Under the pieces are notes generated by a model, which was not told where the DNA came from, made no database searches, and saw only the letters and a list, made by a program, of their open reading frames with translations. Below, piece by piece: positions 2 to 62,887 of a stretch of DNA of 64,000 nt (its first letter is position 1; each line of letters opens with the position of its first letter). The DNA is taken from positions 2,144,001 through 2,208,000 of the forward strand of contig CAXXJV010000001.1 of assembly GCA_963663475.2 (NCBI GenBank), written 5' to 3'. The position numbers and the translations under genes are program-made. Origin of the DNA: Candidatus Cloacimonadales bacterium. Its GTDB lineage: Bacteria > Cloacimonadota > Cloacimonadia > Cloacimonadales > JAFGVF01.

Positions 2-3000
2 TCAGTCCAAGTAGATAATATAGCAGAAATGATTCATAATCTAAACTTATTCTCCTATAGTAATAATAGTAATCAAGGTTATTATAGAAGAGATAACTTA
101 CATTGGTATGGCCAGTTACTTAAAGAAGAAAATATTGAAACTGGAGTAGAAAAAGATAAAGAAAGCTTTATCAAACTTGATTTAGGTAATGTAATTGAAC
201 ATGATTCTAAGAAGATATATATATTAAATTTAATTGGGAAAACAGAAAATGGAGAAGACCTTAACTTAAAGAGAACAAGAAGATATTCTTGGATGAATCA
301 TAAGGTCTCCAAGCTTCTTTTAGCTACTGATTACGCTATCACTGCCAAAGCTTTTGATAATAAAGTGGCTGTAAGGGTGGTTGATGTGCTTTCAGGACAA
401 GCTATTTCTAGGGCTGATGTTGAGCTTAGGGCTTTTAATAATACTTTACTAGCTAGTGGTAAAACTGATAGAAATGGCTGGTTGATTCTTGATCAACTAA
501 ACTATCCATTAGAAAATGGTGACTTTTTTATTATTGCAGAAAAAAGAGATAATATTGGCTTTCTATCTAGTCAATCAATGTATCTAGATAATTCTAAATT
601 TAAAGTGGAAAGTAATTACTCAAATAGTGAATACAAGCTACATGCCTTCCTTGATAGAAATCTCTACAGGCCTGGTGAAGATGTAAATCTTATTGCTATG
701 GTAAGAGATAAAAATAATGAAATAGTCCAAGAAGATATACCCCTCATAGTAACAGTCTATGATGCCAATAATACAAAAGTTATTAGTGAAAAAATTAAAG
801 ATTTAGAAATAGGTCTTGCTACTTATAAGTTTTCAACTAAAGAAAGTTCTATGACAGGTCAATGGCAAATAGAGCTTAAATATGGATCTCTTAAAGAATA
901 TGTTAATTTCACCCTAGAGACTTTTGTTCCTGAGAGAATTAATACTAGTATAAAAACAGATAAAGATTTCTATAATGCTAGGGATAGTAGAGCTAATCTA
1001 GAGCTAGCAAGCAAATATCTCTTTGGTGAACCTTTAGTTGATGCCCTATGTCAGGTCAATATTTCTTATAATCATGACTATTCTTTTGCTAATGATTATT
1101 TTGCTGAATATTCTTTTTATGATGATTACAAAAATTTTGATTATTCTATGTATAGCCAACAAATTACTCTTAAAACAAATAGTAATGGTAGAATAAATAC
1201 AAGAGTTGATTTGTTAAATAATAAGGAAACTTTCAGTCCTTACTTCCTCAATATTCATGCTCAAGTAACAGAAAAGGGAGGGAGACCAATTGAAAGAAAG
1301 CTTGTTTTACCTGTATCACCTCAAGAAAAGTATATTGGACTTAGCAATAACAGGTATCTTAAGGCTAAAGCAGGTGAGTTTTCTCTACCTTTCATTATTG
1401 TTGATGGAAAAGGAAATAAACTTACTGAAGCTAGTCAGATTGAATATGTAGTATATGCTAAACGTGGTTCTTGGTGGTGGGATTATGATGATTTCTATCA
1501 GTCGTCATTTAAAAACTCTGAATCTACTACTATAGTCACTAAGGGGGTAGTTACTAGTGGGAAAGACAATATAATAAAATTCACTCCTAAGTCTTCAGAC
1601 TTCCATGTTTTTATCATTGAAGCCAAGATAACTGGACAAGAAAATTATGAAATTTCCAGAAAGTACTACAATAGCTACTGGGGAGATAGTAGCGAACTAA
1701 CCCAAGATACTTCTCTTGAACTAAAACTTGATAAAGATGAATACCAGATTGGAGACAAAGTTAAATTAAATATCCCTAGCTCAAAGAACAGTTTGCTTTA
1801 TATAACAATATCTAAGCAAGATAAAATTCTAAAACAAGATATTGTAAAATCATCAGAAAATGGAAATTATATCTATGAGTTTACTACAGATAAGGACATG
1901 GTTCCAAATATCTACGCTGATGTAAGAGTTATTCAAGGCCAGAATGAAATTGAAAATGACTTGCCATTACGACTCTATGGTATAATTCCAATAAGAGTTA
2001 TTGATAAAGCTAGTAAACTAGATATCACCTTAGATATTCCTGAAAGAATATCATCTAACTCTAGGTTAGAAGGAAGCATTGATGTAGGTGTTAGAAAGAA
2101 AACTAAGTATATTGTTTCTGTAGTTGATCAAGGGTTAATTAACAAAACAAACTACAAAATCCCTAATCCTTGGTCATTATTCTACCAATCTGAAGCTTAT
2201 TATGGCCGTGATTTTGATAATTTCTCCTACTTTATTAATGCCCAACAATTAGATATATTTAGAAGTATTCTGATTGGTGGTGGCCTTTATGAGTCAGAGG
2301 CAAGTTTTCTTGCTATGGGTAAGGATGGCCTTGCTAGCCTAAGAGAAATGAATAGACTTCAAGAAACAGGAGTACAAAGATTTAACCCAGTTACTTACTT
2401 CCTTGGAATCTTAGAAACTGATAACAATGGTAAAGGTGATTTTCATATTGATATTGAAGATTATACTGGTAGCCTCAAGGTTTGTGTCATAGCTGTAAAT
2501 GAACAAGCCTTTGGACAAGCAACTAAATATACTATTGTTAAAGATAAAATTATAACTATGCCAACCTTACCAAGAGTTTTAACTCCTCAGGATGAAATTG
2601 AAATACCAGTAAATGTTATTATTGACGATGATATAAAGAGTCCTGTAGCAATTAGCTTATCTACTAATGAACTAGTTCAAGTGAGTTCACAAACTTCTTT
2701 TACTATCCCACAAGGAGAAAAATCTGCTTTGCTTATCTTCAAGGCTAAAGTCCTTGATAATACAGGTAAAGCTACTTTTAAATTTACTTCTAATAGTAAG
2801 AAATTTAGTGGAGAAAAGAATATCGAGATAGGGGTAAGATTACCAGCTCCTTATGAAACTGATTCACAAGTTCTAGAATTTAAAGATAACTTAATTAATT
2901 TAACTATTCCTAATAAAGGATTTGCTAACAGTAATCAAGTCTATCTTACTTTTACCCAAGGCCTAGTCTTTGATGCTGATCAGCTAGTCCAACAATCTCT

Positions 3001-4366
3001 TCGTTACCCTTATGGGGGAGCTGTGATGAAAACAGCGCTAACATTTAATCAACTACTCTTAAGCAACTTTGTTAAGGATATTAATTTAAGAAATAGACTT
3101 GATCAAGGTATTAACACTTACTTCCAAAATATTGTTAAATATAATCGCCAAGGCTTATACGAATGGCAAGGATCTTGGAAAGAAAGTTCAGAACGAAAAT
3201 TACTAAATATCTATGCTCTTCATACTGCCATAATTGCTAAAGAAAAAGGCTATAATATAAACGAGTTTGTTTATTCTGAAATATTGAACTATCTGTCTCA
3301 GAGTAAAACTGATAGAAAAGAGATTGATTTCGAAGATGCTTACCAACTCTATGTATTAGCCTTAGCTGGCCAAGCTGATATTGCTAAATTAAATTACTAC
3401 ATTGAGAAAAGAGGGATAAAAGTTAATAGTAATGCTATCAATATGCTGTATATGGCCTATGGTGAATCAGGCTTTGATATCAAGACAATTGAAAAAGACT
3501 TGAAACCTGTAATTGTTATTAATGATCAAATGTCTAGCAGAATTCTTAATCCTATAGAGGAAGTTCAGTCTGCTTTAGAACTCTACCTTAATTCTATATA
3601 TAAGAATAGCAATGGAGAGGATAAAGCTAAAAACATGGCTAAAGCTAACGCTATTGCTAATAAACTATCTCAAAGCAACTACTGGAATTATTATGACATG
3701 AGCTGGAACTTATTTGGATTATCTGCATATATAAGTAACCTGCCCAAAGACTTTAATGATTATCAAACTCAGGAACTGCAAGTATCATCAGCATCTGAGA
3801 CTAATAAGATTAAAGTCAATGACTTCAGCTCATTAGATTTGACTCCTTATAAAGGACAAAAACTTGAGATTAAAGGTCTTTCAAATAAAAGTGAAAATGT
3901 TATGGTTACCCTCTACAATACTTATGTTCCTAAGATTGAAGATACCAAAACATATTCAAATGATATTGAATTATTCATTACTTATCAAGACCTTGATGGA
4001 AATAAACTAGATATATCTTCTCTTAAACAAGGACAGATCTTTATTGTTAATTTCGAAGTAATTCCCAAAGAATCAAAAAATGATTTTGCTCTTACCTATA
4101 TTTTACCTTCAGGTTGGGAATTTGCTTCTCAGGATGAATCAAAGATGGTCGTTAAGCCTAACATGGCTAAACCTGAATATGTTGACCTCCGTGATGATAG
4201 AGCTATTCTCTATGGTAAGGCAAACTATTTTTCCAGAATAGGCCACCAGCTGATTATTAATGCTGTCTCTAAAGGGAAATATATTATTCCCGCAGCGTCT
4301 GTTGAAGACCTTTACAACCCTGAGATTAGAGCAAGTATCAAGGGAAAAATCATAGAAGTAAAATAA
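2..4366 (+). CDS. Bacterial alpha-2-macroglobulin family protein (MG2/YfhM-like), 5'-truncated by the window edge
   Basis: Frame is open from position 2. Has LDRNLYRPGE (MG2 motif), FVPERI, TLPRVL, YPYG and YVDLRDDR, and lies directly upstream of pbpC. The thioester CxEQ is replaced by GAVMK. Confidence 0.92.
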   Translation, partial: SVQVDNIAEMIHNLNLFSYSNNSNQGYYRRDNLHWYGQLLKEENIETGVEKDKESFIKLDLGNVIEHDSKKIYILNLIGKTENGEDLNLKRTRRYSWMNHKVSKLLLATDYAITAKAFDNKVAVRVVDVLSGQAISRADVELRAFNNTLLASGKTDRNGWLILDQLNYPLENGDFFIIAEKRDNIGFLSSQSMYLDNSKFKVESNYSNSEYKLHAFLDRNLYRPGEDVNLIAMVRDKNNEIVQEDIPLIVTVYDANNTKVISEKIKDLEIGLATYKFSTKESSMTGQWQIELKYGSLKEYVNFTLETFVPERINTSIKTDKDFYNARDSRANLELASKYLFGEPLVDALCQVNISYNHDYSFANDYFAEYSFYDDYKNFDYSMYSQQITLKTNSNGRINTRVDLLNNKETFSPYFLNIHAQVTEKGGRPIERKLVLPVSPQEKYIGLSNNRYLKAKAGEFSLPFIIVDGKGNKLTEASQIEYVVYAKRGSWWWDYDDFYQSSFKNSESTTIVTKGVVTSGKDNIIKFTPKSSDFHVFIIEAKITGQENYEISRKYYNSYWGDSSELTQDTSLELKLDKDEYQIGDKVKLNIPSSKNSLLYITISKQDKILKQDIVKSSENGNYIYEFTTDKDMVPNIYADVRVIQGQNEIENDLPLRLYGIIPIRVIDKASKLDITLDIPERISSNSRLEGSIDVGVRKKTKYIVSVVDQGLINKTNYKIPNPWSLFYQSEAYYGRDFDNFSYFINAQQLDIFRSILIGGGLYESEASFLAMGKDGLASLREMNRLQETGVQRFNPVTYFLGILETDNNGKGDFHIDIEDYTGSLKVCVIAVNEQAFGQATKYTIVKDKIITMPTLPRVLTPQDEIEIPVNVIIDDDIKSPVAISLSTNELVQVSSQTSFTIPQGEKSALLIFKAKVLDNTGKATFKFTSNSKKFSGEKNIEIGVRLPAPYETDSQVLEFKDNLINLTIPNKGFANSNQVYLTFTQGLVFDADQLVQQSLRYPYGGAVMKTALTFNQLLLSNFVKDINLRNRLDQGINTYFQNIVKYNRQGLYEWQGSWKESSERKLLNIYALHTAIIAKEKGYNINEFVYSEILNYLSQSKTDRKEIDFEDAYQLYVLALAGQADIAKLNYYIEKRGIKVNSNAINMLYMAYGESGFDIKTIEKDLKPVIVINDQMSSRILNPIEEVQSALELYLNSIYKNSNGEDKAKNMAKANAIANKLSQSNYWNYYDMSWNLFGLSAYISNLPKDFNDYQTQELQVSSASETNKIKVNDFSSLDLTPYKGQKLEIKGLSNKSENVMVTLYNTYVPKIEDTKTYSNDIELFITYQDLDGNKLDISSLKQGQIFIVNFEVIPKESKNDFALTYILPSGWEFASQDESKMVVKPNMAKPEYVDLRDDRAILYGKANYFSRIGHQLIINAVSKGKYIIPAASVEDLYNPEIRASIKGKIIEVK

Positions 4367-4369
4367 TAC

Positions 4370-6706
4370 TTGTCTAGGTCAGAATCTTTAGTCATGATTA
4401 TGCAAAGAAAGAAAATTAAAATACTTGGTCTGCTATTAGTTATTTTTACTCTTAGTTTCTTAGGCTCAATTATTTTTATTCATGCACCTAAAGATTCTGA
4501 CTGGGACTATTCTTCTCAAATTTTAGATGAAAATGGTAAATTCTTAAGAGTTTATCTGGATGTAAATGACCAATGGCACTTAGCCTACAATGCTCCTATA
4601 CCAGAAAAATTAAAGATAGCTATTCTTCAATTTGAAGATAAACACTTCTACTCCCATCCAGGCATTAATCCCTTCTCAATACTCAGAGCTTTATATACTA
4701 ATATCTCTGCTGGGACCATAGTGAGCGGCGGTTCTACTATAACTATGCAAGTAGCTAGACTTTACTCTCAAGGAGATAGAAATCTTCTTAATAAAATAAA
4801 AGAAGCTCTTATCTCCATTAAATTAGAAGTATTGAACACTAAAGATGAAATCCTTCTCACTTACCTTAATAATGCACCTTACGGAAGCAATATTGTTGGT
4901 ATAGAGACTGCTGCTTATAAATACTATGGCAAAAAAATTCAAGAACTAACCTGGGCTGAAGCTTGCCTCTTTGCAGTCTTACCTAATAATCCTGGCTATC
5001 TATTCCCAGGTAGCAATACTAACAGACTAAAAGATAAAAGAGATAAACTTCTTAATAAACTTAAAGAACAAGGTTATCTTACTGATAATGAATACAAAAA
5101 TTCAATTAGAGAAAGGATCCCAAACAAGCATTACTCTTTCCCTCTCTTAGCCCCCCACTTAAGTGATAAACTCCACAGTCAAGGACCAGCTATCTACAAT
5201 ACCACTATTAATGGTGATTTGCAAAAGAAACTTGAAGATTTAGCTATCAGAAAAGGGTATTTATTAAATACTATGGGAATTAAGAATTTAGCAATCCTAG
5301 TTAGTGATACTAAAAATCACCAAGTAAAAGCTTATATAGGTTCTCAAAACTATTTTTCTAAATCCACTAATGGCTTTAATGATGGAGTACTTGCTTTAAG
5401 ATCCTCTGGGTCAATACTTAAACCCTTTATTTATGGATATGGACTTGAGAAAGGATTAATAACTCCTAACTCTCTCTTAGAAGATACTAAACAAAATTAT
5501 GGTATGTTACTACCCCAGAACTATGATAAGCAATATAGAGGATTAGTTACAGTTTCTCAAGCCCTACAAAAGTCACTTAATATCCCAGCTTATGAGATTA
5601 CTCAAAAAATAGGTCTCTATGATGTAACCTCAGTTCTCAAAAGTGTAGGAATGACAAGCTTGACAAGAGATCCTTCAACTTATGGTCTTTCAATCTGTGT
5701 AGGAGGAGCGGAAACTAATCTCTGGGATCTCAGTCAAATGTACCAGACTCTGGGAAATTATGGACAGTATAATAAGCTAAGTGTCCTTAAAGATAGTGAA
5801 GCTCATCAAAAGACAAGTCTGCTATCTCCTGCAAGTTCTTATCAAATTCTAGACATCTTAAGAGGTCTTAAAGTTCCTGATTCCTTTCCCGCAAATAATC
5901 TTAATATAGCTTGGAAAACGGGAACAAGTAATGGTTTTAGAGATGCTTGGGCTGTTGGACTTAATGAAGATTGGACAATTGCGGTTTGGGCAGGAAACTT
6001 CACAGGAGAAGGCAATCATAAGCTATCAGGAAGAAACATTGCAGGTGATATTCTTTTCCAAGTTGCTAGTGGTTTAATCTCTCCTCATGCTAGTTTTTTT
6101 ATAAAGCCTTGGTCTGATTTAAAACAAGTTCCAATCTGCCAAGTATCAGGGTATAGTCCAACTAAAAATTGCCAGGATACCCTTTGGATAGATGTACCCA
6201 AGAATGCTAACATATTACCTAACTGCCCTTATCATAAAAGTGTAGTTGTGGATAGTGAGGAAACAATGCAAGTATGTTCAGATTGCTGGCAAGGTATTAA
6301 ACATAAGACTATTTCTGTCTTGGACTATCCCCCTAATGTAGATTATCACCTTAAAGAAAATTCTATCACTTACCCTAAGTTACCTAAACATAATCCACAA
6401 TGCACAAGAATTCAAGAGGAAGAAAAATTAATTATTAAGTATCCAATCAACAATAGTAAAATCTATTTACCTATTGACTTGAATGGAAAAATAAACTCTT
6501 TCCAGGCTGAAGCAGTTTCTGATCATGACCAGCTATATTGGTTTCTAAATAATAAATTCTTAGGGAAAACTACTAAAGTTCATAAACTAGATATTAAAAC
6601 AAATCCTGGTAAAAAGCACTTACACCTAGTTTCTCAAGAAGGCCTTTCAACACAAATAACTTTTGAAATAATTGTTAACTCAAATAAAACCTTTAACCCA
6701 GAATAA
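4370..6706 (+). CDS. pbpC: Penicillin-binding protein 1C (transglycosylase/transpeptidase)
   Basis: Transglycosylase motifs EDKHFYSHPG and GGSTITMQVAR; transpeptidase SxxK (GSILK) and KTGT; C-terminal PBP1C domain; paired with A2M. True start may be ATG 4394 or 4400. Confidence 0.93.
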   Translation: MSRSESLVMIMQRKKIKILGLLLVIFTLSFLGSIIFIHAPKDSDWDYSSQILDENGKFLRVYLDVNDQWHLAYNAPIPEKLKIAILQFEDKHFYSHPGINPFSILRALYTNISAGTIVSGGSTITMQVARLYSQGDRNLLNKIKEALISIKLEVLNTKDEILLTYLNNAPYGSNIVGIETAAYKYYGKKIQELTWAEACLFAVLPNNPGYLFPGSNTNRLKDKRDKLLNKLKEQGYLTDNEYKNSIRERIPNKHYSFPLLAPHLSDKLHSQGPAIYNTTINGDLQKKLEDLAIRKGYLLNTMGIKNLAILVSDTKNHQVKAYIGSQNYFSKSTNGFNDGVLALRSSGSILKPFIYGYGLEKGLITPNSLLEDTKQNYGMLLPQNYDKQYRGLVTVSQALQKSLNIPAYEITQKIGLYDVTSVLKSVGMTSLTRDPSTYGLSICVGGAETNLWDLSQMYQTLGNYGQYNKLSVLKDSEAHQKTSLLSPASSYQILDILRGLKVPDSFPANNLNIAWKTGTSNGFRDAWAVGLNEDWTIAVWAGNFTGEGNHKLSGRNIAGDILFQVASGLISPHASFFIKPWSDLKQVPICQVSGYSPTKNCQDTLWIDVPKNANILPNCPYHKSVVVDSEETMQVCSDCWQGIKHKTISVLDYPPNVDYHLKENSITYPKLPKHNPQCTRIQEEEKLIIKYPINNSKIYLPIDLNGKINSFQAEAVSDHDQLYWFLNNKFLGKTTKVHKLDIKTNPGKKHLHLVSQEGLSTQITFEIIVNSNKTFNPE

Positions 6707-8853: not shown

Positions 8854-8937
8854 AAATTATTTAAAATATTAGAAAATATTCTTGACAAAAAAACTAACTT
8901 AAATTTATATGAGTAAACTTATCGCAAGGGAGAAAAA

Positions 8938-9318
8938 ATGGAAATATTTCTTTTAGTAATACATATACTTATTAGTATTGCTTTGGTCTTATTGATCTTA
9001 GCTCAAACTTCTAAGGGTAATGGATTAGATAGTAATTTAGGCGGAGCTGCTTCTAACGTTTTTGGAAGTTCTGCTTCTGAAATGTTGAAAAAATGGACTC
9101 AGATTATCGGAGGACTTTTCTTGATCTCTTGTGTCTTCTTAGCTATTAATGTTAAGTCAGGTAAGTCAGTTGATAATGTTGCTCCAGCATCAACAGGTCA
9201 AGTCAACACTCAAGAGACTTCACCTGCACAAGAATTAGATCTCGAAGAAGGCGATATTCAGGAAATACCTGCTACTGAAGAAACTTCAGAAACAGCAAGT
9301 GAAACACCTGTAAGATAA
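8938..9318 (+). CDS. secG: Preprotein translocase subunit SecG
   Basis: Two TM helices linked by LAQTSKGNGL..LGG; acidic tail; followed by tRNA-Leu as in the common secG-leuU synteny. Confidence 0.9.
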   Translation: MEIFLLVIHILISIALVLLILAQTSKGNGLDSNLGGAASNVFGSSASEMLKKWTQIIGGLFLISCVFLAINVKSGKSVDNVAPASTGQVNTQETSPAQELDLEEGDIQEIPATEETSETASETPVR

Positions 9319-9329
9319 AACTTTTAAAA

Positions 9330-9417
9330 GCAGGAGTGGTGGAATTGGCAGACACGCAAGACTAAGGATCTTGTGCCCATTGCGGGTGTGCGGGTTCAAG
9401 TCCCGCCTTCTGCACCA
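9330..9417 (+). tRNA. tRNA-Leu, anticodon AAG
   Basis: Acceptor stem GCAGGAG/CTTCTGC, discriminator A, encoded CCA; D-loop GG; anticodon stem CAAGA/TCTTG with loop CTAAGGA (anticodon 9364-9366); long variable arm; T-arm GCGGG-TTCAAGT-CCCGC. Confidence 0.96.
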
Positions 9418-9422
9418 AACTT

Positions 9423-9449
9423 AAAAGCCCAACATTGTTGGGCTTTTTT
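9423..9449 (+). terminator. Intrinsic terminator after tRNA-Leu (possibly bidirectional)
   Basis: AAAAGCCCAACA-T-TGTTGGGCTTTTTT inverted repeat with a T tract. Confidence 0.85.
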
Positions 9450-9472
9450 GCTATTAAGAATTAAGTGCTAAA

Positions 9473-13925: not shown

Positions 13926-15116
13926 ATGATGAAAAGGTCTTTTCTTATAGTAATTACTTTACTTCTAATCCAAATCAGTATAGCAGACGCTCAAGTTAAC
14001 TATAGTGCCCCTGAATTTATGCAGGCATATTACCAAGCTTATTCTAGAAACTATATCAATACATTGGCATCAGGTAGAGGAAATACAGGAGTAGCAAAAA
14101 TAGAAAATATTGAAAATGTTCTATTAAATCCTGCTGGTTTCTCAACAGATCACTCAGAAATGTATATAGAGTTCATGGTCAAACCTGAACAAAAAGAAAT
14201 TGGACATTTATATGATCAAAACTATCATTCTAATAAACCATTCACTTTTGTTGGCTTTGGATTTAATATTATTGATAAGTTATCTACTGGACTTTACTAT
14301 TCACTACCAAATAGCATTAAATACGATAGATATACTATTGATGATTATGGTACTGCTCTGATTCAAAATTCTAAACCTGAATATAACCAATATAGTTTTG
14401 GCTTAGTTAATTCTTACAAACTTGGTAAACTAAGTCTTGGATTTAATGCAAAATATGATATCCACTCAATAAAGAGTATGTTACTAAATGGATCTTCTGC
14501 TAAATTTGATTTGGACGAAAGCCTTGTTTCCTTCTCCACAGGAGCTATTTATCAAGTTAGTGATAGATTGAATCTTGGACTTGCTTACAATCATAGTTCT
14601 GAAATAGATTTTACTACCCAGTATTATTCATGGGATGTAAGTATTCCTGTAAGTTTCTCTGCAGGTATCTCTTATTATTATCTTTATGATAGTATTGTAA
14701 ATTTAGATTATGAAAAGAGGTTTAATAGTCAAATGAGTGATTACTATGATGATTTAGATATCTTCAAACTAGGACTAGAACAACAGATAAGAAATAGTAT
14801 AGTTCGATTTGGACTTATGTATATTCCATCTACATTCTCAGGACAAGTTAATCTACCAATTGCTAATCTAGATTCTCAGATAGAACCTCATTATCCAAAT
14901 AATTTTAACAATGGAATAGAGAATATACTATCCACTGAACAAACCTTCTTAACTATTGGTTATACCTTAAATATGGAAGAGCTAACCTTTAATCTAAGTG
15001 GCATGCAGGCTGTTGGTTCAGAGATGAAAACCACTCAACTTTCAATGTCTATTGGTGTTAACTTAACTGATTTCGATATAACCAAATATACACCAAAGAG
15101 TCGTGATGAAGACTAA
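13926..15116 (+). CDS. Outer-membrane protein, FadL/OmpP1-like barrel
   Basis: Signal peptide; GRGNTGVA..LNPAG plug-like N-terminal motif; beta-strand-rich. Confidence 0.55.
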   Translation: MMKRSFLIVITLLLIQISIADAQVNYSAPEFMQAYYQAYSRNYINTLASGRGNTGVAKIENIENVLLNPAGFSTDHSEMYIEFMVKPEQKEIGHLYDQNYHSNKPFTFVGFGFNIIDKLSTGLYYSLPNSIKYDRYTIDDYGTALIQNSKPEYNQYSFGLVNSYKLGKLSLGFNAKYDIHSIKSMLLNGSSAKFDLDESLVSFSTGAIYQVSDRLNLGLAYNHSSEIDFTTQYYSWDVSIPVSFSAGISYYYLYDSIVNLDYEKRFNSQMSDYYDDLDIFKLGLEQQIRNSIVRFGLMYIPSTFSGQVNLPIANLDSQIEPHYPNNFNNGIENILSTEQTFLTIGYTLNMEELTFNLSGMQAVGSEMKTTQLSMSIGVNLTDFDITKYTPKSRDED

Positions 15117-17882: not shown

Positions 17883-18659
17883 ATGAAAAGGTTTGGTCTT
17901 GTAATTTTACTATTTTGTTTAATAAGCTTATTAAATGGGCATATTTATTTAAACAATTGTGCTGATAGAATTGGAGTAGCTAATATTTCTTTACTTTCGC
18001 AGTCTCCGATTACTTCTTACTATAATCCTGCAATTTCTCATGAAGGAATCTCATCATCAATATCTCAGCCCTATGGTTTTAATGATGTTGATAAGGGTAA
18101 TTTATCAATTTCTAAAGACTTTCAGAAGTATAACATTACAATTACTAGCAACTATCTGATTAGTCCCCACTACACTTATTTTTCCAATAATCTTGCTATG
18201 AATTATAAGTTTGATAAGTATGCTATTCTTGGCATTGGTTATAAAATTGTTAGTATTAGAGAAGAAGAAAATTACAACTTACCTGAGACTAATATTGGTT
18301 TGCTACTTCACAAAGATAATGTAAGATTAGCAGTGAGTTATTCTAATTTATTAAATAAGAAAAGTAGCCATACTGAATTACCTAATATCTTAACTTCAGA
18401 GATTTCTTTCAAACTTAACCAGTTTATAGGTCTTGCTTTAGGACTTGAAAAAGAAAAGAACTACAAGCAAACAACAAAAATTGCTATAAGATATAAAGCT
18501 CTGAAATCACTTGAACTGCTGTCAGGATACTCACTTGATCCAAATCAACTGTTTGCAGGTATGCAAGTTGATTACAAAAAGATTAAGACTGTTTATGCTC
18601 TTGAATCTCATTTAGAATTAGGATTAACTCATACAATATCCTTAATTTATGCATTTTAG
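17883..18659 (+). CDS. Putative outer-membrane beta-barrel protein
   Basis: Signal peptide; YYNPA plug-like motif; amphipathic strands; terminal Phe. Confidence 0.5.
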   Translation: MKRFGLVILLFCLISLLNGHIYLNNCADRIGVANISLLSQSPITSYYNPAISHEGISSSISQPYGFNDVDKGNLSISKDFQKYNITITSNYLISPHYTYFSNNLAMNYKFDKYAILGIGYKIVSIREEENYNLPETNIGLLLHKDNVRLAVSYSNLLNKKSSHTELPNILTSEISFKLNQFIGLALGLEKEKNYKQTTKIAIRYKALKSLELLSGYSLDPNQLFAGMQVDYKKIKTVYALESHLELGLTHTISLIYAF

Positions 18660-20085
18660 AATAATTTTCTTTATAATAATATTTATCATTCATGTTAGTG
18701 TTTATGCTGATACGAGTATTTATGATTATGAAGAAAAAGATGAATTAATCGATAGAATTAATAATGGTATTGAACAGACTCTATATGAAGTATGGTCAAA
18801 TAAAAGACTTTTTTTAACATATAGAACAGATTTATGTGCTTCTTATGAGAATCAATATCTTGCAAGCTATCAAACAAGTAATGTTGATTTTAAGTTTCGT
18901 CAGCAAGGTAATGATCATTCGCGATTATATATGTCTCTAGCTCAAGATAATTATAATTTTGGATTTGGAAGCTATGAAACAAGCTTTGGTTTAGGTAATA
19001 TTTATCACAAGAATAGTAAAGAGCATTTTAATGATAAAGTTTTTTCATCATCTAGTCTTGATCAAAATGGCTTATTCTTAGCTTATAATACCATTAATTA
19101 TGGCCTAGATTTATTTTATTCAGTAAATAATATAAATACAATAGTGAAGGATGATTTGACCAGAAAGATTGTTTATTATGATAGCAATAAAAGTCAAATT
19201 AAACAATATGGTATCAAAACGAGTTATAGTTTTTCTTGTTTGGCTGTAGATTTATTATATACTAATTTTCGCACTGACAGCTATATAGAGGATTTTGCAA
19301 ATAAGAAATCTAGCTCCTTATTCTCATATTATTTAGATTATCACAAATCTTTTATTAAACTTGCCTATGAAGGTAATTATCAATTTGATAATTTTGCTTA
19401 CGCATTTTTGTCCAGCTTTTCCCGAGATGATTTTGAAATTACGTGGAAATATAAAAAACTTCCAGAAAAATCATTAGCATGGTATAGTTCAGGAATTAGT
19501 AATAAATACAATTCTAATACTGAGATTATTGCTGGATTCATAGAATTCCCATTATTTATGATGAAATTTAAGCTAGCCTATGAAGTAAAATCAAATAATC
19601 GTATCTCTGAATGGTCTAGTAAGGAATATCTACAAATGTCTAATTTAAATAAATTCAAATATAGGTTAACAAAGGAAGTATATAAAGATTATCAAGCTGA
19701 AAAACATGAGAAGTACAGTCATTTGATTAATGCAGAAATTATGAAATTCTCTAATTCTAATATAAGTATTAACTATCTCCTCAATACTAAAAAAGAGTCT
19801 GGTCTTGCCCATAGATATAAGCTTAACTACAATCTAAAAACTAGAATAGGCTTATTTAAATCAAGTTTAACTATTCTTGATAACTACAAAAATGAAGAAA
19901 TTGTCCAAGATTTAGATCAGAGAATTATAGCCACTTTTTACAAGTATTCAGAAGATTTGATAATTGCATTTAAGTTTAAGACAAAAGACTTTCACAATAT
20001 TTCATTGCAATGTAATCTATTGCATTCTTTATATAACAATAGACTTAATTCCTTTAGAATAGACTTAAATTTTCTTCTAAAATAA
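18649..20085 (+). CDS. Hypothetical exported, probably outer-membrane, protein
   Basis: Signal peptide; Tyr/Phe-rich strands; overlaps the upstream gene, suggesting coupling. Confidence 0.45.
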   Translation: MHFRIIFFIIIFIIHVSVYADTSIYDYEEKDELIDRINNGIEQTLYEVWSNKRLFLTYRTDLCASYENQYLASYQTSNVDFKFRQQGNDHSRLYMSLAQDNYNFGFGSYETSFGLGNIYHKNSKEHFNDKVFSSSSLDQNGLFLAYNTINYGLDLFYSVNNINTIVKDDLTRKIVYYDSNKSQIKQYGIKTSYSFSCLAVDLLYTNFRTDSYIEDFANKKSSSLFSYYLDYHKSFIKLAYEGNYQFDNFAYAFLSSFSRDDFEITWKYKKLPEKSLAWYSSGISNKYNSNTEIIAGFIEFPLFMMKFKLAYEVKSNNRISEWSSKEYLQMSNLNKFKYRLTKEVYKDYQAEKHEKYSHLINAEIMKFSNSNISINYLLNTKKESGLAHRYKLNYNLKTRIGLFKSSLTILDNYKNEEIVQDLDQRIIATFYKYSEDLIIAFKFKTKDFHNISLQCNLLHSLYNNRLNSFRIDLNFLLK

Positions 20086-23443: not shown

Positions 23444-23791
23444 ATGAAATTGAAAGATATCTTAGAGTTATTAGAAGGTGAATTGTTAACACCAGATGCT
23501 GATATAGAGGTTGATATACCTTGTGCTTTTGGGTCTGATTTAATTTCAGACATCTTGATGTGTACCAAAGAATCAACACTGTTATTAACAGGATTAACTA
23601 ACCCGCAAGTTATTAGATTATCCGATATGATTGATTTGTTAGGCGTCGTTTTTGTTAGAGGTAAGAGACCACCTCAAGATCTTATTGATATGGCTATCGA
23701 AAGAGAACTACCATTGATAACAACTAAAATGACCATGTACAAATCTGCTGGACTTCTCTATAATAAAGATTTAAGAAGTTGTCAGATTTAA
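23444..23791 (+). CDS. DRTGG-domain protein
   Basis: GSDLISDIL, LLLTGLTNPQVIR, VVFVRGK. Confidence 0.85.
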   Translation: MKLKDILELLEGELLTPDADIEVDIPCAFGSDLISDILMCTKESTLLLTGLTNPQVIRLSDMIDLLGVVFVRGKRPPQDLIDMAIERELPLITTKMTMYKSAGLLYNKDLRSCQI

Positions 23792-23792
23792 T

Positions 23793-24284
23793 ATGGCAGA
23801 ATATTGGAACATTAATGAAAACTTTAAAGAGAGAGCTGAAGCTTTTTTAAAAGACAAACCACAACCAGCTATCTCTTTAGAGTATAAGGTAACTAAGCAC
23901 GACTTTAATAATGCGGGGAATGGTTCGGCAGAACTGAAAAGAATGCTAAAAAAATTAGGTGTGGATCCTGTAGTTTTAAGAAAAGTTGCAGTTGCATCTT
24001 ACGAAGCAGAGATAAATTTAGCTGCTCATTCAGATGGCGGAGTAATGAAAAGTCATGTGCATGGGGATTTAGTACATATAGTATTTGAAGACGTTGGACC
24101 AGGAATTGAAGATATTAACAAAGCTCTAGAAGAAGGATTCTCTACCGCTGTTGAGTATGTAAGAGAAATGGGTTTTGGGGCAGGATTAGGCTTGCCTAAT
24201 ATAAAAAAGAATTCAGATGTAATGCATTTAGATTCAGTAAGAGGAAGAAATACTATATTAGAGATTATAACATATTTTAAATAA
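23793..24284 (+). CDS. Anti-sigma-factor-like HATPase_c (putative Ser/Thr kinase)
   Basis: DFNNAGNGS, N-box YEAEIN, G1 EDVGPGI, G2 GFGAGLGLPNIK. Confidence 0.85.
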   Translation: MAEYWNINENFKERAEAFLKDKPQPAISLEYKVTKHDFNNAGNGSAELKRMLKKLGVDPVVLRKVAVASYEAEINLAAHSDGGVMKSHVHGDLVHIVFEDVGPGIEDINKALEEGFSTAVEYVREMGFGAGLGLPNIKKNSDVMHLDSVRGRNTILEIITYFK

Positions 24285-24297
24285 ATTGCAGGAATAT

Positions 24298-25584
24298 ATG
24301 TATCAGGAAAACGAATATTTTCATGCTTTGAGAATAAATCAGGATAATTGTACGGGTTGTACAGCTTGCGTAAAAGTCTGTCCTACCGAAGCAATTAGAA
24401 TTAGGAATAAAACAGTAATTTTAGACGAAAGAAGATGTATCGACTGTGGTAATTGCATTGAAGCATGTTCATTTAAAGCTATTGTTCCTTATTCAGATGA
24501 TTTTGATATAATAGACAAATATAAATATAGAATAGCTGTATTTTCAACAGTTTATGCAGGGCAATTTACTGAAGAAAATGACTATGCAACTATCAAAAAA
24601 ACGGTTTTAAAGCTAGGTTTTGATGAAGTCGCAGAAGAATCAAGTGTTGTTGATTTTATGACTGAGATGATTCAGAAGTATATTCGTGATAATGAAGATA
24701 TCAGACCAGTTTTATCCAGTGGCTGCCCAGCAATTGTAAGATTGATTCAAGTTAGATTCCCATCCTTACTACCTAATCTTTTCCATATTGAAGCCCCTAT
24801 GAGTATTCTTTCTTATTACTTAAGAGAGCAAGCTAAAGAAAAATTTCAGTATACAGATGATGAAATTGGCGTATTTTTGATAGTTCCCTGTGTTTCGCAA
24901 GTAACTGCTGTTCACCAGCCTGAGGGAACTTACAAATCTTATCAAGATGGAGCTTTTTCGATTAGACAGATTTATAGTAAAGCTCAAGAGGTAGTTAAAG
25001 AAGCTTGGTATGATGAAGAGCCAATCGATACTTATGAAAGTGGATTAACATATGGAATTGCTGCTAAAGAAGCTGATAAAATAGATTCTGATGATATCAG
25101 AGTTTTATCCGTTACTGGAATTGATAACTGTATTGAAATTCTCTCCCGTATAGAAGACCATCATTTTGACCAGTATCAATACGTCGTCCTACGTTCTTGT
25201 GATGTAGGTTGTGTCGGTGGGGGATTGAATGTTGAAAATAAATTCATTGCTATGAGTAGGTTGAAGAAACTTGCTCAAAAAGAAAATGATGATAAGCTTG
25301 ATTATAAAGAATTTTGGACCTTGAATAAAAAAGGTAAATTTGCTGTGCCAAAGCTTAAACCTCGTTCTATTATGGAGCTAGATGATAACTTATTTGCAGC
25401 ATTAGAAAAGATTCAAAAAATCCAAGAGATAACAAAGCAACTTCCTGGCATAAATTGTAGTGCCTGTGGTTGTCCTACTTGTTATGCACTTGCAGAAGAT
25501 ATTGTTCAAGGTAAAGCAACAATTAAAGATTGTGTAATACTCTATAAGAGAAATCTCGATAAAACAGAAAAGAAAGGAAAATAA
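24298..25584 (+). CDS. [FeFe]-hydrogenase large-subunit-like Fe-S protein (group D-like, probably non-catalytic)
   Basis: N-terminal 2x[4Fe-4S]; degenerate H-cluster motifs SSGCP, VPCVSQ, RSCDVGCVGG; C-terminal FeS domain PGINCSACGCPTC..C. ATG 24298 follows AGGA; the ORF track uses TTG 24286. Confidence 0.85.
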   Translation: MYQENEYFHALRINQDNCTGCTACVKVCPTEAIRIRNKTVILDERRCIDCGNCIEACSFKAIVPYSDDFDIIDKYKYRIAVFSTVYAGQFTEENDYATIKKTVLKLGFDEVAEESSVVDFMTEMIQKYIRDNEDIRPVLSSGCPAIVRLIQVRFPSLLPNLFHIEAPMSILSYYLREQAKEKFQYTDDEIGVFLIVPCVSQVTAVHQPEGTYKSYQDGAFSIRQIYSKAQEVVKEAWYDEEPIDTYESGLTYGIAAKEADKIDSDDIRVLSVTGIDNCIEILSRIEDHHFDQYQYVVLRSCDVGCVGGGLNVENKFIAMSRLKKLAQKENDDKLDYKEFWTLNKKGKFAVPKLKPRSIMELDDNLFAALEKIQKIQEITKQLPGINCSACGCPTCYALAEDIVQGKATIKDCVILYKRNLDKTEKKGK

Positions 25585-25585
25585 A

Positions 25586-25930
25586 ATGATAAAATTACAA
25601 GAATATCTAGAGAAAATTGACCATCAAGTATTAAACCCAGAATTACCATTAGATAAAGTTGAACTATCTACTGGTTATGTTTCAGATTTGTTATCAGATG
25701 TTATGGGATCAGCAAAAGATAATATGGCTTGGTTCACGATAATGCGTCATATGAACGTAATTGCTGTAGCTTCCATGGCCGATATACCATGTATTATCTT
25801 TGGAAAGAATACGCCACCCGAACAAGCTGTTATTGATAAAGCAACAGAAGAAGGCATAGTACTGATTAAAACATCTTTACCTGTTTTTGATGCTGCTGGA
25901 GTACTTTATAAGCTTTTACACCAGGATTAA
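25586..25930 (+). CDS. DRTGG-domain protein
   Basis: GYVSDLLSDVM, WFTIMRHMNVIAVAS. Confidence 0.85.
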   Translation: MIKLQEYLEKIDHQVLNPELPLDKVELSTGYVSDLLSDVMGSAKDNMAWFTIMRHMNVIAVASMADIPCIIFGKNTPPEQAVIDKATEEGIVLIKTSLPVFDAAGVLYKLLHQD

Positions 25931-26673
25931 TGCTAAAAAAGTATAAAATTGATCTTCATAACCATACAGTTTTATCTCCGTGTGGGGGCTTAGAAATGTC
26001 CCCTACAGCTCTTTTAGAAAGAGCTAAGGAGTTGGGACTTGATATGATAGCCATAACAGATCATAATAGCTGTAAGAATTGCAAAGCTTATTATGAGTTA
26101 GGCAAGGATTATCAAATAAGTGTAATTCCAGGAGTCGAAATCCAGACTATGGAAGAGATTCATGTTATTGCTTTGTTTCCTGATATTGAAACAGCTGAAA
26201 CTTTCGATAAAATATTATACCAAGCTCTACTTCCTATTGAAAATAATCCAGATTATTTTGGAGATCAAGTCATAGTCGATAAAGATGAAAACATTATTGG
26301 TTTGGAAGAAAGAGCCTTGATAAACTCAGTGATTTGGGATTTTGAAACTACTGTGAATAAGGTTAAAGAGTTTGATTCCATTTGCTTTCCTGCTCATATC
26401 GATGCCCAGGCCAACTCAGTTATCTCTCAGCTAGGTTTCTTGCCTGCAGGTTTGCCTATTGATGGTGTTGGAATCACTGCTAGGTGCGATATAAAGAACT
26501 TTCTAGCCAACAATTCTTACTTAGATGGGATTACTCTTATTAGAAATTCAGATGCCCATTACCTTAATGATATGGGTTCTGGGTCGTGTTTCGCAAGACT
26601 TGAGGATGTTACCTACGCAGAACTAAAACTTGCCTTTGCTAAGCAAGCTAATAGAGAGATTATTCCTGCCTAA
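25930..26673 (+). CDS. PHP-domain phosphoesterase
   Basis: DLHNHTVLSPC, AITDHN, PGVEI..EEIH, PAHID, NSDAH. Confidence 0.9.
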   Translation: MLKKYKIDLHNHTVLSPCGGLEMSPTALLERAKELGLDMIAITDHNSCKNCKAYYELGKDYQISVIPGVEIQTMEEIHVIALFPDIETAETFDKILYQALLPIENNPDYFGDQVIVDKDENIIGLEERALINSVIWDFETTVNKVKEFDSICFPAHIDAQANSVISQLGFLPAGLPIDGVGITARCDIKNFLANNSYLDGITLIRNSDAHYLNDMGSGSCFARLEDVTYAELKLAFAKQANREIIPA

Positions 26674-29500: not shown

Positions 29501-30268
29501 TTATCTCATTCTTTTAATTATTTCAAAATTAGTTGTATATCGTAAATATTGATTAGGATTAGGTGAGGATGTAAAAGGCATGTGACAAGGTCTATAAACC
29601 ATCTTACTTTCCTCGAGGGACTTAGCTGTTAAGTGTAACTCCTTAACTCGGCAATGATTGAGTAATTCATCTTTATTATCAGGATTCACTCCCGACCCAG
29701 CCATGATTGATATCCTACCCTTTGATAAGTTTACTAAGTCTCTTATGAGATTCTTTCCCTTAATTGCTGTAGGCTCATGTCCTGAAGTAAGAATCCTATC
29801 AGCACCACTAAATATTATATCTTCAAGTGCCTGAATGGGGTCTTTGGTAAAATCAAAAGCCCGATGAAAAGTTACTTGCATAGGTCTAGCTAATTGCACA
29901 AGTTGAGAAGTTCTGTCTATATCAATATAACCATTTCTTGTAAGAATACCAAATACTACACAATTAGCAGCTAATTCTTTAGCCATGATTATATCTTCTT
30001 TCATAACCAAGAAATCTTCATCAGAATAGCAAAAATCTCCACCTCTTGGTCTAATCATGATGGATAAATCTAGTGAAATATTAGATCTTACAGATTTGAT
30101 AAGTCCATATGAAGGTGTAATCCCTCCTTCTAGTAGATCTGAACATAACTCAAGCCTATCCGCTCCAGCACTTTGAGCAATAATAGCTGATTTTAGAGAA
30201 TCAACACATATTTCTAAAGTAAAGCTTTTCTCAGAGCTTGGACTAGGATTTGAAATCTCATCCTTCAT
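29501..30268 (-). CDS. cutC: Copper homeostasis protein CutC family
   Basis: LEICVDS, RLELC..EGGITPS, MIRPRGGDF, TFHRAFD, RILTSG. Confidence 0.92.
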   Translation of the reverse strand: MKDEISNPSPSSEKSFTLEICVDSLKSAIIAQSAGADRLELCSDLLEGGITPSYGLIKSVRSNISLDLSIMIRPRGGDFCYSDEDFLVMKEDIIMAKELAANCVVFGILTRNGYIDIDRTSQLVQLARPMQVTFHRAFDFTKDPIQALEDIIFSGADRILTSGHEPTAIKGKNLIRDLVNLSKGRISIMAGSGVNPDNKDELLNHCRVKELHLTAKSLEESKMVYRPCHMPFTSSPNPNQYLRYTTNFEIIKRMR

Positions 30269-30914
30269 TAGGCCACCTTTTTAGATAATAAGCATGATCC
30301 ATAAATTGATAATCTAAGCTACAAGAGTAGTTGAATATTTGGGAAATTTTGGAGAACTCAGTTTGAGAAAGATCTATACTAAAGTCATTCACATATCTTT
30401 TAACCAGGTTAGTTTGTGCTATGAAATCCTCGGAAACATAAGTATCAATCCAAGACTGGTAGGGGTTTCCTGAGACACTATGTTTAGCTATATTTTTACC
30501 ATTCTCCAGATAAAGCCAAAAACAGGGGAGAAGAGAAGTTAGGCCATGTAAGAATTTCTCAGTAGAGATTGTAGAAATTAAAAAAGAGCTATAAGCTAGG
30601 CAGGCAGGTTGCATAAATTCTGTAGCTTCAATATTATACTTTAAAAAGAGGTCTTTTTGAAAGATGTGTTCAAGTTCATAAGACTCAAGAGCAAGTTTAG
30701 CGAATACATCTGATATCTCAGCATTCGGGGCTTTTTGAGAAAGCAGTGTCATTGCTTTAGCATATTGCTTGATATAGATTGCATCTTGTTGTAAGTAGAA
30801 TTTAAAAGCTTCTAATGGTAGATTTCCTGCAGCAAGAGATTTTGAAAATGGATGATTGAAATGTTTTGCAATAATATGACTAGCATTCTGCCATAGAATG
30901 TCTGTAGTTAACAT
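30258..30914 (-). CDS. tenA: Thiaminase II / aminopyrimidine aminohydrolase
   Basis: HPF, FYLQQD, LLPCFWLY (catalytic Cys), NPYQSWIDTY; lies in the thi operon. Confidence 0.88.
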   Translation of the reverse strand: MLTTDILWQNASHIIAKHFNHPFSKSLAAGNLPLEAFKFYLQQDAIYIKQYAKAMTLLSQKAPNAEISDVFAKLALESYELEHIFQKDLFLKYNIEATEFMQPACLAYSSFLISTISTEKFLHGLTSLLPCFWLYLENGKNIAKHSVSGNPYQSWIDTYVSEDFIAQTNLVKRYVNDFSIDLSQTEFSKISQIFNYSCSLDYQFMDHAYYLKRWPNEG

Positions 30915-30926
30915 TATACTTTCCTT

Positions 30927-31730
30927 TTACCAAAGATTATAGAAGTGATTAACAGGACTTTTACCCTTACCAAGTTTATAAAAAGCTCCATCAGAAATAG
31001 CTTTAGTAATATAATCTTTTGCTTTTTCTACAGCAGAAATAACATCATAATTCTGACCAAGATAAGCAGCAATTGCAGAGGAAAGAGTACAACCAGTTCC
31101 GTGATTATTAATAGTATCAATTCTTTCGGATTCTAGCCAAATAGCTTGCTGATTTTGGGATAAAAATAGGTCTGGAAGCAAGTCATTTTTATAGAAACTT
31201 CCTTTAAGAATAATGTTTTTACAACCAAATGAAAGTAACTTATTACCAGCAGTTAGCATATCTTCCTTGTTAGAAATATTCATATTAGTAAGCACTTGGG
31301 CTTCACTTAAGTTAGGGGTTATGACTTGGGCAATAGGCAAGAGTTTTGCTATGAGTGATTCAATAGCATTATCATGCAAGAGTTTATCTCCTGATTTAGC
31401 CACCATTACCGGATCAAGAACAATTTTCTCAATACCATATTCTTGAATGCAAGTTGCAACTATTTCGATAACTTGCGGACTGCTTAACATCCCAATTTTA
31501 ATGGCATCAGCACCAATATCAGATAAAACAGCATCAATTTGTTCTTTCACAAAGTCAGGGCTAACAGGATAAATACCAGTTACTCCTAAAGTGTTTTGAG
31601 CTGTCAAAGCTGTAATAACAGACATTCCATAACAGCCTAAAGCTGAAAATGTTTTTAAATCAGCTTGAATACCAGCTCCTCCACCGCTATCAGAGCCGGC
31701 AATAGTCAAAAGTCTAGTATATTTTTTCAA
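30927..31730 (-). CDS. thiD: Hydroxymethylpyrimidine/phosphomethylpyrimidine kinase
   Basis: LTIAGSDSGGGAGIQADLK, TAQNT, DPVMV, TPNL, HGTGCTLS. Confidence 0.96.
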   Translation of the reverse strand: MKKYTRLLTIAGSDSGGGAGIQADLKTFSALGCYGMSVITALTAQNTLGVTGIYPVSPDFVKEQIDAVLSDIGADAIKIGMLSSPQVIEIVATCIQEYGIEKIVLDPVMVAKSGDKLLHDNAIESLIAKLLPIAQVITPNLSEAQVLTNMNISNKEDMLTAGNKLLSFGCKNIILKGSFYKNDLLPDLFLSQNQQAIWLESERIDTINNHGTGCTLSSAIAAYLGQNYDVISAVEKAKDYITKAISDGAFYKLGKGKSPVNHFYNLW

Positions 31731-31820
31731 TCATTTCTCCTTGGAAGTAATTTAATCATAAGAATAACAGTAGAATAAGTCTTAAATGTTAATAAGAATA
31801 TTCTACTGTTAATGTAAGTT

Positions 31821-32462
31821 TCAAAGTTTTCCTTTTTGTATTTGGTCGCGAAGATTTATACTTGCCTGACGTGGGGAATCTGCAGAACATATTGCAGAGA
31901 CTACAGCAATTCCGTCAGCACCAGCTTTAATAATATCACTTGTATTATGGATATTAACTCCTCCAATTGCTACAAGTTTATGTTTAGAAAAGCTTTTAAT
32001 ATCTCTAATACCTTCTAAACCTAGGGGTTTAGCTATATCAATTTTAGTATTAGTTGAGAAAACTGGGCTAATCCCAAGATAATCAACATCTAAGCATAGT
32101 GCATCTCTAGCATCTTCTAGTGATTCTACTGACAATCCTATGATAGCATTCTTACCTAAAATCTTCCTAGCAACTTCATAAGGTAAGTCAGATTGCCCAA
32201 TATGCAGTCCTTGGGCATTGACTGCTAAAGCAATATCAAGTCTGTCATTAATAATTAAAGGAACTTTATATTTCTTAGTTACAAGAGAAACAGCTTTTGC
32301 TACTTCATAAAATTCTCTACTTGAACAATCTTTTTCTCTTAATTGAACAACGCTAGTGCCACCTAAAATAGCTTCCTCAATGACATAAATAAGGTCTCTT
32401 CCTAAAGTCAAAGCCCTATCAGTAACTAAGTATAAAGAATAATCGATATTATCTTTAGACAT
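31821..32462 (-). CDS. thiE: Thiamine-phosphate synthase
   Basis: LYLVTD, VQLREK, LIINDR, HIGQSD, VAIGG, AVVSAI. Confidence 0.96.
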   Translation of the reverse strand: MSKDNIDYSLYLVTDRALTLGRDLIYVIEEAILGGTSVVQLREKDCSSREFYEVAKAVSLVTKKYKVPLIINDRLDIALAVNAQGLHIGQSDLPYEVARKILGKNAIIGLSVESLEDARDALCLDVDYLGISPVFSTNTKIDIAKPLGLEGIRDIKSFSKHKLVAIGGVNIHNTSDIIKAGADGIAVVSAICSADSPRQASINLRDQIQKGKL

Positions 32463-33249
32463 GATATTTCAGTGTTTTGGCAACTTCTTCTTGAGTGATA
32501 TTATATAATTTATCAATAAAGTTAAGCTGTAAGGAAGCAGGGCCATTAGAATCTTGAACCGCTAACTGGCCACATATACCCATAAGGGCCATAGCATTAG
32601 CACAAGCTTGCAGATAGTTATCATTAACAGCACAGAAAGCACCAGTTAAGGCAGTAGCAGTACATCCTAAGCCAGTTACTTTAGGCATCATACTATGTCC
32701 ATTATCGATAAAAATAGTCTCATTTCCATTAGTAATTATATCTATTTCTCCAGATACAACAACAAGGCATTTATAGTGTTCAGCTAAGTTTTTAGCAGCC
32801 AATTCAGCCTTGTCAGATGAATGTGAACTATCAACCCCTTTAGTTTGAATACTTGTATCAAGTAGGGCCATTATTTCAGATGCATTCCCTCTAATTACGC
32901 TAGGTTTAGCAATTTTGAAGAGTTCTTTTACAGTAGCTGTTCTGAATTTCGTCGCACCAGCACCAACAGGATCAACAATGATTGGGATATTTCTAAGTCT
33001 AGCTGTTTGCATAGCAACTTTCATAGCTTCAATCCAGTGTTCACTAAGGGTACCAATGTTTATTACTAAGGCTGAAGCTATTTGAGCCATATCTGCAACT
33101 TCCTCAATAGCATGAGCCATAACTGGTGAAGCACCTAATGAAAGTAGAGCATTAGCAGTATTATTCATTACTACATAATTAGTAATATTATGGATAAGAG
33201 GAGAACTTTCTCTTATTTTTTCAATATCATTCCATACATTAAGGTTCAT
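32455..33249 (-). CDS. thiM: Hydroxyethylthiazole kinase
   Basis: PLIHNITNYV, GASPVMA, DPVGAG, RGNASEI, TGLGC. Confidence 0.96.
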   Translation of the reverse strand: MNLNVWNDIEKIRESSPLIHNITNYVVMNNTANALLSLGASPVMAHAIEEVADMAQIASALVINIGTLSEHWIEAMKVAMQTARLRNIPIIVDPVGAGATKFRTATVKELFKIAKPSVIRGNASEIMALLDTSIQTKGVDSSHSSDKAELAAKNLAEHYKCLVVVSGEIDIITNGNETIFIDNGHSMMPKVTGLGCTATALTGAFCAVNDNYLQACANAMALMGICGQLAVQDSNGPASLQLNFIDKLYNITQEEVAKTLKYHV

Positions 33250-62823: not shown

Positions 62824-62832
62824 TCATAATAT

Positions 62833-62872
62833 AATAAGAGAGAGTTAGCCTAGGCTAGCTCTCTTATTTTTT
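62833..62872 (+). terminator. Intrinsic terminator-like hairpin between mutB and meaB
   Basis: AATAAGAGAG..TAGCC-TA-GGCTA..CTCTCTTATT followed by TTTT. Confidence 0.7.
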
Positions 62873-62887
62873 AGTGAGGTAAATATT

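Follow-up and report, generated by a model that had tools for sequence, protein, structure and literature searches.

The secG gene of the DNA studied here is followed by a leucine tRNA gene whose anticodon is encoded as AAG. The question is whether its first anticodon base, A34, is genuine, how it arose and how such a tRNA would read the CUN leucine codons. The window, meaning the whole stretch of 64,000 nucleotides that was analysed, has a GC content of about 32%. We found 34 homologues of its SecG protein, and the named sources among them were Candidatus Cloacimonetes and Cloacimonas. The genes in the window are those of an anaerobic, Gram-negative-type bacterium and include LolCE, LptD, GmhB, [FeFe]-hydrogenase-like proteins and methylmalonyl-CoA mutase with MeaB. 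Its sequence assigns the window to a low-GC member of the Cloacimonadota.

The tRNA gene is positioned at 9330-9417 on the forward strand. ARAGORN found it as the sole tRNA gene of the 64 kb window, a class II tRNA-Leu with the anticodon aag. Rfam also gave a single tRNA match in the window (RF00005, 9330-9414 on the forward strand, 53.3 bits against a gathering score of 29, E = 1.2e-08), and the match spans model positions 1-71 of 71. Direct reading of the sequence gave an acceptor stem GCAGGAG/CTTCTGC, a D stem of three pairs, an anticodon stem CAAGA/TCTTG, a long variable arm with a CCC/GGG stem and a loop, and a T stem GCGGG/CCCGC. The anticodon loop is CTAAGGA (9362-9368; C-U-A-A-G-G-A in the tRNA), the anticodon occupies 9364-9366 and A34 is base 9364. 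The discriminator is an A and is followed by an encoded CCA. A73 and a long variable arm are identity features for LeuRS. The minimum free energy fold of the single sequence gave no cloverleaf and was not better than shuffled sequences (z = -1.12), and missing the cloverleaf is usual for such folds of tRNAs. This uninformative fold is outweighed by the covariance-model match and the comparative data described below. The first-pass annotation had described an intact tRNA-Leu with AAG, and ARAGORN, Rfam and direct reading agree with it: the gene is a real, intact tRNA-Leu with the anticodon AAG.

Directly upstream of the tRNA we found secG (8938-9318, forward strand), encoding a protein of 126 aa that matches TIGR00810 (E = 7.5e-17, 61.1 bits against a cutoff of 30.85). 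The distance from the secG stop codon to the tRNA start is 11 nt. Downstream, the terminator scan gave an intrinsic-terminator-like hairpin with a T-run at 9423-9452 on the forward strand, which closes the secG-tRNA unit. The stem-loop itself (9423-9447) has 11 pairs, five of them G-C, with a loop of 3, and is followed by the T-run TTGCTATT. Between 8700 and 9700 there were two terminator-like sites, against a mean of 0.6 after shuffling. The encoded CCA and the gene's own terminator, both claimed beforehand, were thereby recovered, the first by reading and the second as the hairpin and T-run 3' of the tRNA. Since the tRNA starts 11 nt after secG and has its own terminator, it is probably co-transcribed with secG. 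Our scan gave no sigma-70-like promoter directly upstream of secG; the sigma-70 consensus may not be the one of this phylum. By eye, TTGACA is seen at 8882-8887 with TATATG 18 nt later, a pair that falls below the criteria of the promoter scan.

Next, we surveyed the same locus in relatives. An alignment of 24 of the 34 SecG homologues (A1) was used to scan species-representative genomes. The scan matched 128 stretches, 92 of which passed tblastn, and the best 80 of these 92 were taken as loci L001-L080, with around 20 kb surrounding secG per genome and about 1.2 Mb altogether. All 80 are Cloacimonadota-type secG loci, and most are titled Cloacimonadota, Cloacimonadales or Cloacimonas; a few bear just the title 'uncultured bacterium' and one that of 'uncultured proteobacterium'. 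ARAGORN placed a tRNA-Leu(AAG) just downstream of secG and on its strand in 77 of these best 80 loci. The other three (L031, L051 and L072) are uninformative because their contigs end about 50-200 nt past the secG match. The first-pass annotation had pointed to the secG-linked tRNAs of relatives as the place where GAG might turn up, and we observed AAG in 77/77 informative loci and GAG in none. Over the whole of the best 80 of 92 loci ARAGORN gave 80 tRNA genes, namely 77 Leu(aag), two Pro(ggg) and one Arg(ccg), so that no Leu(GAG) was among the tRNA genes found within the roughly 20 kb around each secG. In each of two GC-rich relatives (L012, 21-98; L015, 3196-3273) a tRNA-Pro(GGG) gene precedes secG by 7-10 kb, and the tRNA-Arg(CCG) lies in one other locus; these three are the only non-leucine tRNAs in the set.

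The tRNA genes of the 77 relatives reduce to 29 distinct sequences that are 91-99% identical to the window gene, one of them cut by a contig end. The 88-nt sequence of the window recurs identically in the assemblies of two other species (L001 and L002). All 77 have the loop CTAAGGA without variation. Their anticodon stem comes in two forms, CAAGA/TCTTG (74 loci) and TAAGA/TCTTA (three loci), which differ by a compensated change. We aligned 28 distinct Cloacimonadota sequences with E. coli leuU (alignment A2) and wrote out the cloverleaf by hand. All 667 of 667 pair cells (100%) over its 23 pairs held standard pairs. Changes on both sides were seen in nine of the 23 pairs. None of 500 shuffles came as high, and slid controls were 38-65% paired. 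In the column of position 34, all 28 distinct Cloacimonadota rows have A and leuU has G. The GC content of the best 80 of 92 loci spans 31-59%, and A34 is fixed in every sampled Cloacimonadota species across this range.

These data bear on an objection to the AAG anticodon, namely that the A at 9364 stems from faulty assembly or sequencing, from a private mutation or from a decaying copy, and that the relatives carry GAG. Nothing was found in favour of this explanation, and the probability left to it is negligible. The identical 88-nt sequence stands in two other species-level assemblies, and the structure is fully maintained in the relatives. Assembly error and private mutation are ruled out by A34 in all 77 informative relatives, which come from independent assemblies and show 29 distinct sequences.

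The arrangement around the tRNA is kept as well. The gap between the secG stop and the tRNA was 4-47 nt in 76 of the 77 relatives from the best 80 of 92 loci, and in the remaining one it was computed as -36, which is probably an artefact of frame extension. A hairpin with a T-run within 80 nt downstream of the tRNA was present in 65 of the 74 relatives of this set that were long enough to test, while the same search in random 80-nt windows of the same loci gave 7/74. With the gap, the tRNA and the terminator all retained in the relatives, the unit of secG, tRNA-Leu(AAG) and terminator is conserved across the sampled phylum.

Where did A34 come from? In E. coli K-12, secG is immediately followed by leuU, which is annotated as tRNA-Leu(GAG). 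The earlier claim that the tRNA after secG is normally Leu(GAG) is true of E. coli K-12, the one genome in which it was checked. The window gene and leuU both follow secG directly and share its strand, their architecture is the same, and they agree in 64 of 87 aligned columns. They differ at position 34, where leuU has G and the Cloacimonadota gene has A, and in the anticodon stem, which is CUACC/GGUAG in leuU and CAAGA/UCUUG in the window tRNA. The tRNA-Leu(AAG) gene is the counterpart of the secG-linked tRNA-Leu(GAG). Because the two genes occupy the same slot after secG and share these columns, it is a reasonable reading of the sequences that the syntenic gene switched from G34 to A34. The first-pass annotation had proposed such a switch in this very genome. 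The switch itself holds up as a reasonable reading, but its placement does not, since A34 is common to every sampled member of the Cloacimonadota. This means that the G-to-A change goes back to the ancestors of the phylum, or further still, and is not specific to this genome.

Another route to the same gene would be horizontal gain from Lactobacillales or another A34-bearing lineage instead of a G-to-A change in the resident gene. The distribution of tRNA-Leu(AAG), which the excerpted text of one study describes as otherwise concentrated in Bacilli (PMC13249217), would fit such a transfer. However, the gene has the same position relative to secG as leuU, at 4-47 nt from the stop in nearly all informative loci, it has the 64 columns in common with leuU, and a single transition is enough to make an A34 gene. 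We regard horizontal gain as very improbable and keep to the change in the resident gene.

We then considered how the codons are read. G34 reads both CUC and CUU without deamination, while A34 reads C poorly when it is unmodified. The leucine codons of 50 window ORFs (19650 codons) were TTA 703, CTT 497, CTA 281, TTG 157, CTC 118 and CTG 72, and the counts of CTT and CTA bear out the earlier impression that these two codons are common. For the relatives, codons were counted over roughly 20 kb of each genome, in crude ORFs that run from ATG to stop and encode 150 aa or more. In these crude ORFs of the best 80 of 92 loci, CTC/(CTT+CTC) rose from about 0.10-0.27 at 31-36% GC to 0.56-0.71 above 53% GC, and CTC reached up to 31% of all leucine codons. 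Pooled over five GC bins, again from crude ORFs, the C share of CTY was 0.20, 0.29, 0.44, 0.58 and 0.65. This share moves in step with the C share in the Val, Ala, Gly and Arg boxes, close to Val and slightly lower than the other three, so CUC is not avoided. With A34 poor at reading C and CUC in ordinary use, either A34 is converted to inosine or there is another tRNA that reads CUC. A separate tRNA-Leu(GAG) elsewhere in the genome, reading CUC, would remove this codon-usage argument for inosine.

Conversion to inosine at position 34 (I34) has precedents. The first-pass annotation had put forward a candidate for I34 decoding beyond tRNA-Arg, and such decoding is not new for bacteria: the literature excerpts at hand describe I34 in the tRNA-Leu(AAG) of Oenococcus oeni, Streptococcus pyogenes and S. 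mutans. According to the excerpted text of one report, tRNA-Leu(AAG) is completely I34-edited in S. pyogenes, the S. pyogenes TadA edits it in vitro while the E. coli TadA does not, the editing consensus is YUAMGRA, and the mRNA editing sites of this species include UAAG as well as UACG (PMC11472039). A second study, likewise excerpted, describes editing of tRNA-Leu(AAG) in S. mutans and, in vitro, by the S. pneumoniae TadA (PMC13249217). The loop CUAAGGA fits YUAMGRA exactly in 77/77 loci from the best 80 of 92. As the E. coli TadA rejects tRNA-Leu(AAG) in vitro, a broadened TadA is required.

From this analysis we consider it likely that the gene encodes a functional CUY-reading leucine tRNA, a counterpart of leuU with A34 that TadA deaminates to I34 and that replaces tRNA-Leu(GAG). 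After transcription, A34 would be deaminated by the genome's own TadA, which would have to accept not only the C35 of tRNA-Arg(ACG) but also A35, as the Streptococcus TadA does. The resulting tRNA-Leu(IAG) would read CUU and CUC, and possibly CUA. The AAG gene would thus take the place of tRNA-Leu(GAG) and not be an addition to it, and its presence in the slot of the GAG gene suggests replacement. We hold I34 to be the best reading because of the precedents, the loop that matches YUAMGRA and the codon usage. In the GC-rich genomes CUC overtakes CUU, yet A34 has never gone back to G, which argues for I34 formed by a TadA of relaxed specificity. Cloacimonadota are likely to be a new case of inosine-based reading of leucine codons.

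The enzyme itself was searched for around secG. A regular-expression search for the deaminase zinc motif, in six frames of the window and of the best 80 of 92 loci, gave no TadA-like ORF; it returned only three cytidine-deaminase (Cdd)-like ORFs with CAE...PCGAC, in L018, L058 and L059. Pfam and NCBIfam scans gave no deaminase among the window ORFs.

That TadA was seen neither in the window nor in these loci would also suit a tRNA whose A34 stays unmodified. Such a tRNA would read mainly CUU, and CUC would be left to a Leu(GAG) or a broad U34 tRNA elsewhere, or to weak A:C mispairing. Unmodified A34 is documented in bacteria in the literature excerpts: the Thr and Ser tRNAs of O. oeni carry it, and the Mycoplasma tRNA-Thr(AGU) with unmodified A34 reads ACU, ACC and ACG in vitro. 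Moreover, CUU is the main CUN codon in the low-GC genome of the window (497 against 118 CUC), so a CUU reader would match the demand there. Several observations speak against this explanation. A34 is kept in 77 informative species, including GC-rich ones in which CUC stands to CUU as up to 0.71 to 0.29, and under such a model G34 would be of advantage to these GC-rich genomes. The gene's position is that of the GAG gene, its loop fits the Streptococcus TadA consensus, and every bacterial tRNA-Leu(AAG) tested so far, as far as the excerpted reports go, is I34-modified. Taken together, we find an unmodified A34 rather unlikely. The stricter form, in which an unmodified tRNA-Leu(AAG) is the sole reader of CUU and CUC across a free-living phylum with non-reduced genomes, GC-rich ones included, is improbable. 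If true, it would mean efficient A:C wobble reading outside Mycoplasma and organelles, a departure from the accepted wobble rules.

The preferred reading, with I34 made by TadA, can be compared with two known systems. The tRNA-Leu(AAG)/(IAG) of Lactobacillales is also a class II tRNA-Leu with a genomically encoded A34 and a loop that fits YUAMGRA. There, AAG replaces the GAG gene, and no Lactobacillales family has AAG and GAG genes together in the excerpted part of the study (PMC13249217); in Cloacimonadota, AAG likewise stands in the slot of the GAG gene. The two groups differ in that Cloacimonadota are an unrelated phylum of the Gram-negative type, as LolCE, LptD and GmhB in the window indicate, and in that the trait is found in all sampled species of this phylum, compared with some families of one order for Lactobacillales. 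The A34 gene occurs at up to 59% GC in Cloacimonadota, while the Lactobacillales studied are, by the excerpted account, all AT-rich (PMC13249217). The modification and the TadA specificity are shown in Lactobacillales, whereas in Cloacimonadota we infer them. The second system is tRNA-Arg(ACG) with TadA, where A34 also lies in a seven-base loop with U33 and G36 and for which the same enzyme is proposed; tRNA-Arg(ACG) has C35, in contrast to A35 in the Cloacimonadota tRNA-Leu(AAG).

In the excerpts available, bacterial I34 outside tRNA-Arg is demonstrated only in a few Lactobacillales. The 2026 study asks whether inosine-driven leucine recoding reaches beyond this order, and the only further carriers of tRNA-Leu(AAG) that its excerpted text names are Mycoplasma and Prochlorococcus (PMC13249217). 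A full-text literature search returned nothing that links Cloacimonadota to tRNA-Leu(AAG), with co-mentions of TadA judged by title and the start of the abstract, and Fig. S1C-D of PMC13249217 may already list a Cloacimonas genome. The string 'Cloacimon' is absent from two supplementary files of PMC4041420. The AAG gene is surely present in public annotations, because any standard tRNA finder detects it. The kind is known, namely tRNA-Leu(AAG) genes of bacteria that stand in place of Leu(GAG) and whose product is read as IAG; the lineage appears to be new. The unreported point seems to be the fixation of the AAG gene across a whole phylum and a wide GC range. As a separate matter, a 2026 survey of 42,109 bacterial genomes, in its excerpted text, gives Cloacimonadota among other phyla in which a tRNA-Trp(CCA) with a 4-bp anticodon stem is prominent (PMC13092985). 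Cloacimonadota may therefore have more than one unusual tRNA feature; there is no tRNA-Trp in the window.

If A34 is deaminated as proposed, Cloacimonadota would be an independent, whole-phylum case of bacterial I34 outside tRNA-Arg. The series from 31 to 59% GC with a fixed A34 would offer a natural test of the effect of I34 on the choice between CUU, CUC and CUA under a shifting mutational bias. The same series could serve to test how TadA specificity broadens for a second time, which is also the step that came before eukaryotic ADAT. With a broadened TadA, the range of possible mRNA editing sites would be wider too, taking in UAAG as well as UACG, as in S. pyogenes. For annotators there is a small practical point, which is that the AAG anticodon of the secG-linked tRNA-Leu should not be taken as an error.

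Arginine codons shift as well. In the window AGA makes up 485 of 679 arginine codons and CGG four, and arginine in low-GC Cloacimonadota is almost all AGA, while the GC-rich members make heavy use of CGC. With secG neighbourhoods from 31 to 59% GC, Cloacimonadota offer a broad natural series in which codon usage shifts.

The rest of the window holds several further gene groups. At 29-6706 (forward strand) a bacterial alpha-2-macroglobulin of 1445 aa, with MG2, bMG3, bMG5, bait region and bMG10 domains and no NCBIfam match, is encoded immediately before penicillin-binding protein 1C (TIGR02073, 674 bits). Genes for alpha-2-macroglobulin and PBP1C are known to be associated in Gram-negative bacteria. 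Four long ORFs, at 13926-15116, 17883-18659 and 18649-20085 on the forward strand and 55560-58094 on the reverse strand (396, 258, 478 and 844 aa, respectively), matched nothing at E up to 1e-3 or 1e-10 in NCBIfam and at E up to 1e-5 in Pfam. Five closely packed ORFs are found at 23444-26673 (forward strand). Three of them are small (115, 163 and 114 aa) and have no Pfam or NCBIfam family. Of the other two, one encodes 432 aa and has ferredoxin domains together with the C-terminal domain of the [FeFe]-hydrogenase large subunit, and one encodes a 247-aa PHP-domain protein. The reverse strand carries a cluster for thiamine salvage and synthesis (tenA, thiD, thiE and thiM) at 30258-33249, and no TPP riboswitch was found at the Rfam gathering threshold anywhere in the window. 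Finally, the small and large subunits of methylmalonyl-CoA mutase and then the MeaB GTPase are encoded at 58505-64000 (forward strand). Propionate-related metabolism has been reported for Cloacimonadota, and the mutase and MeaB genes fit with it.
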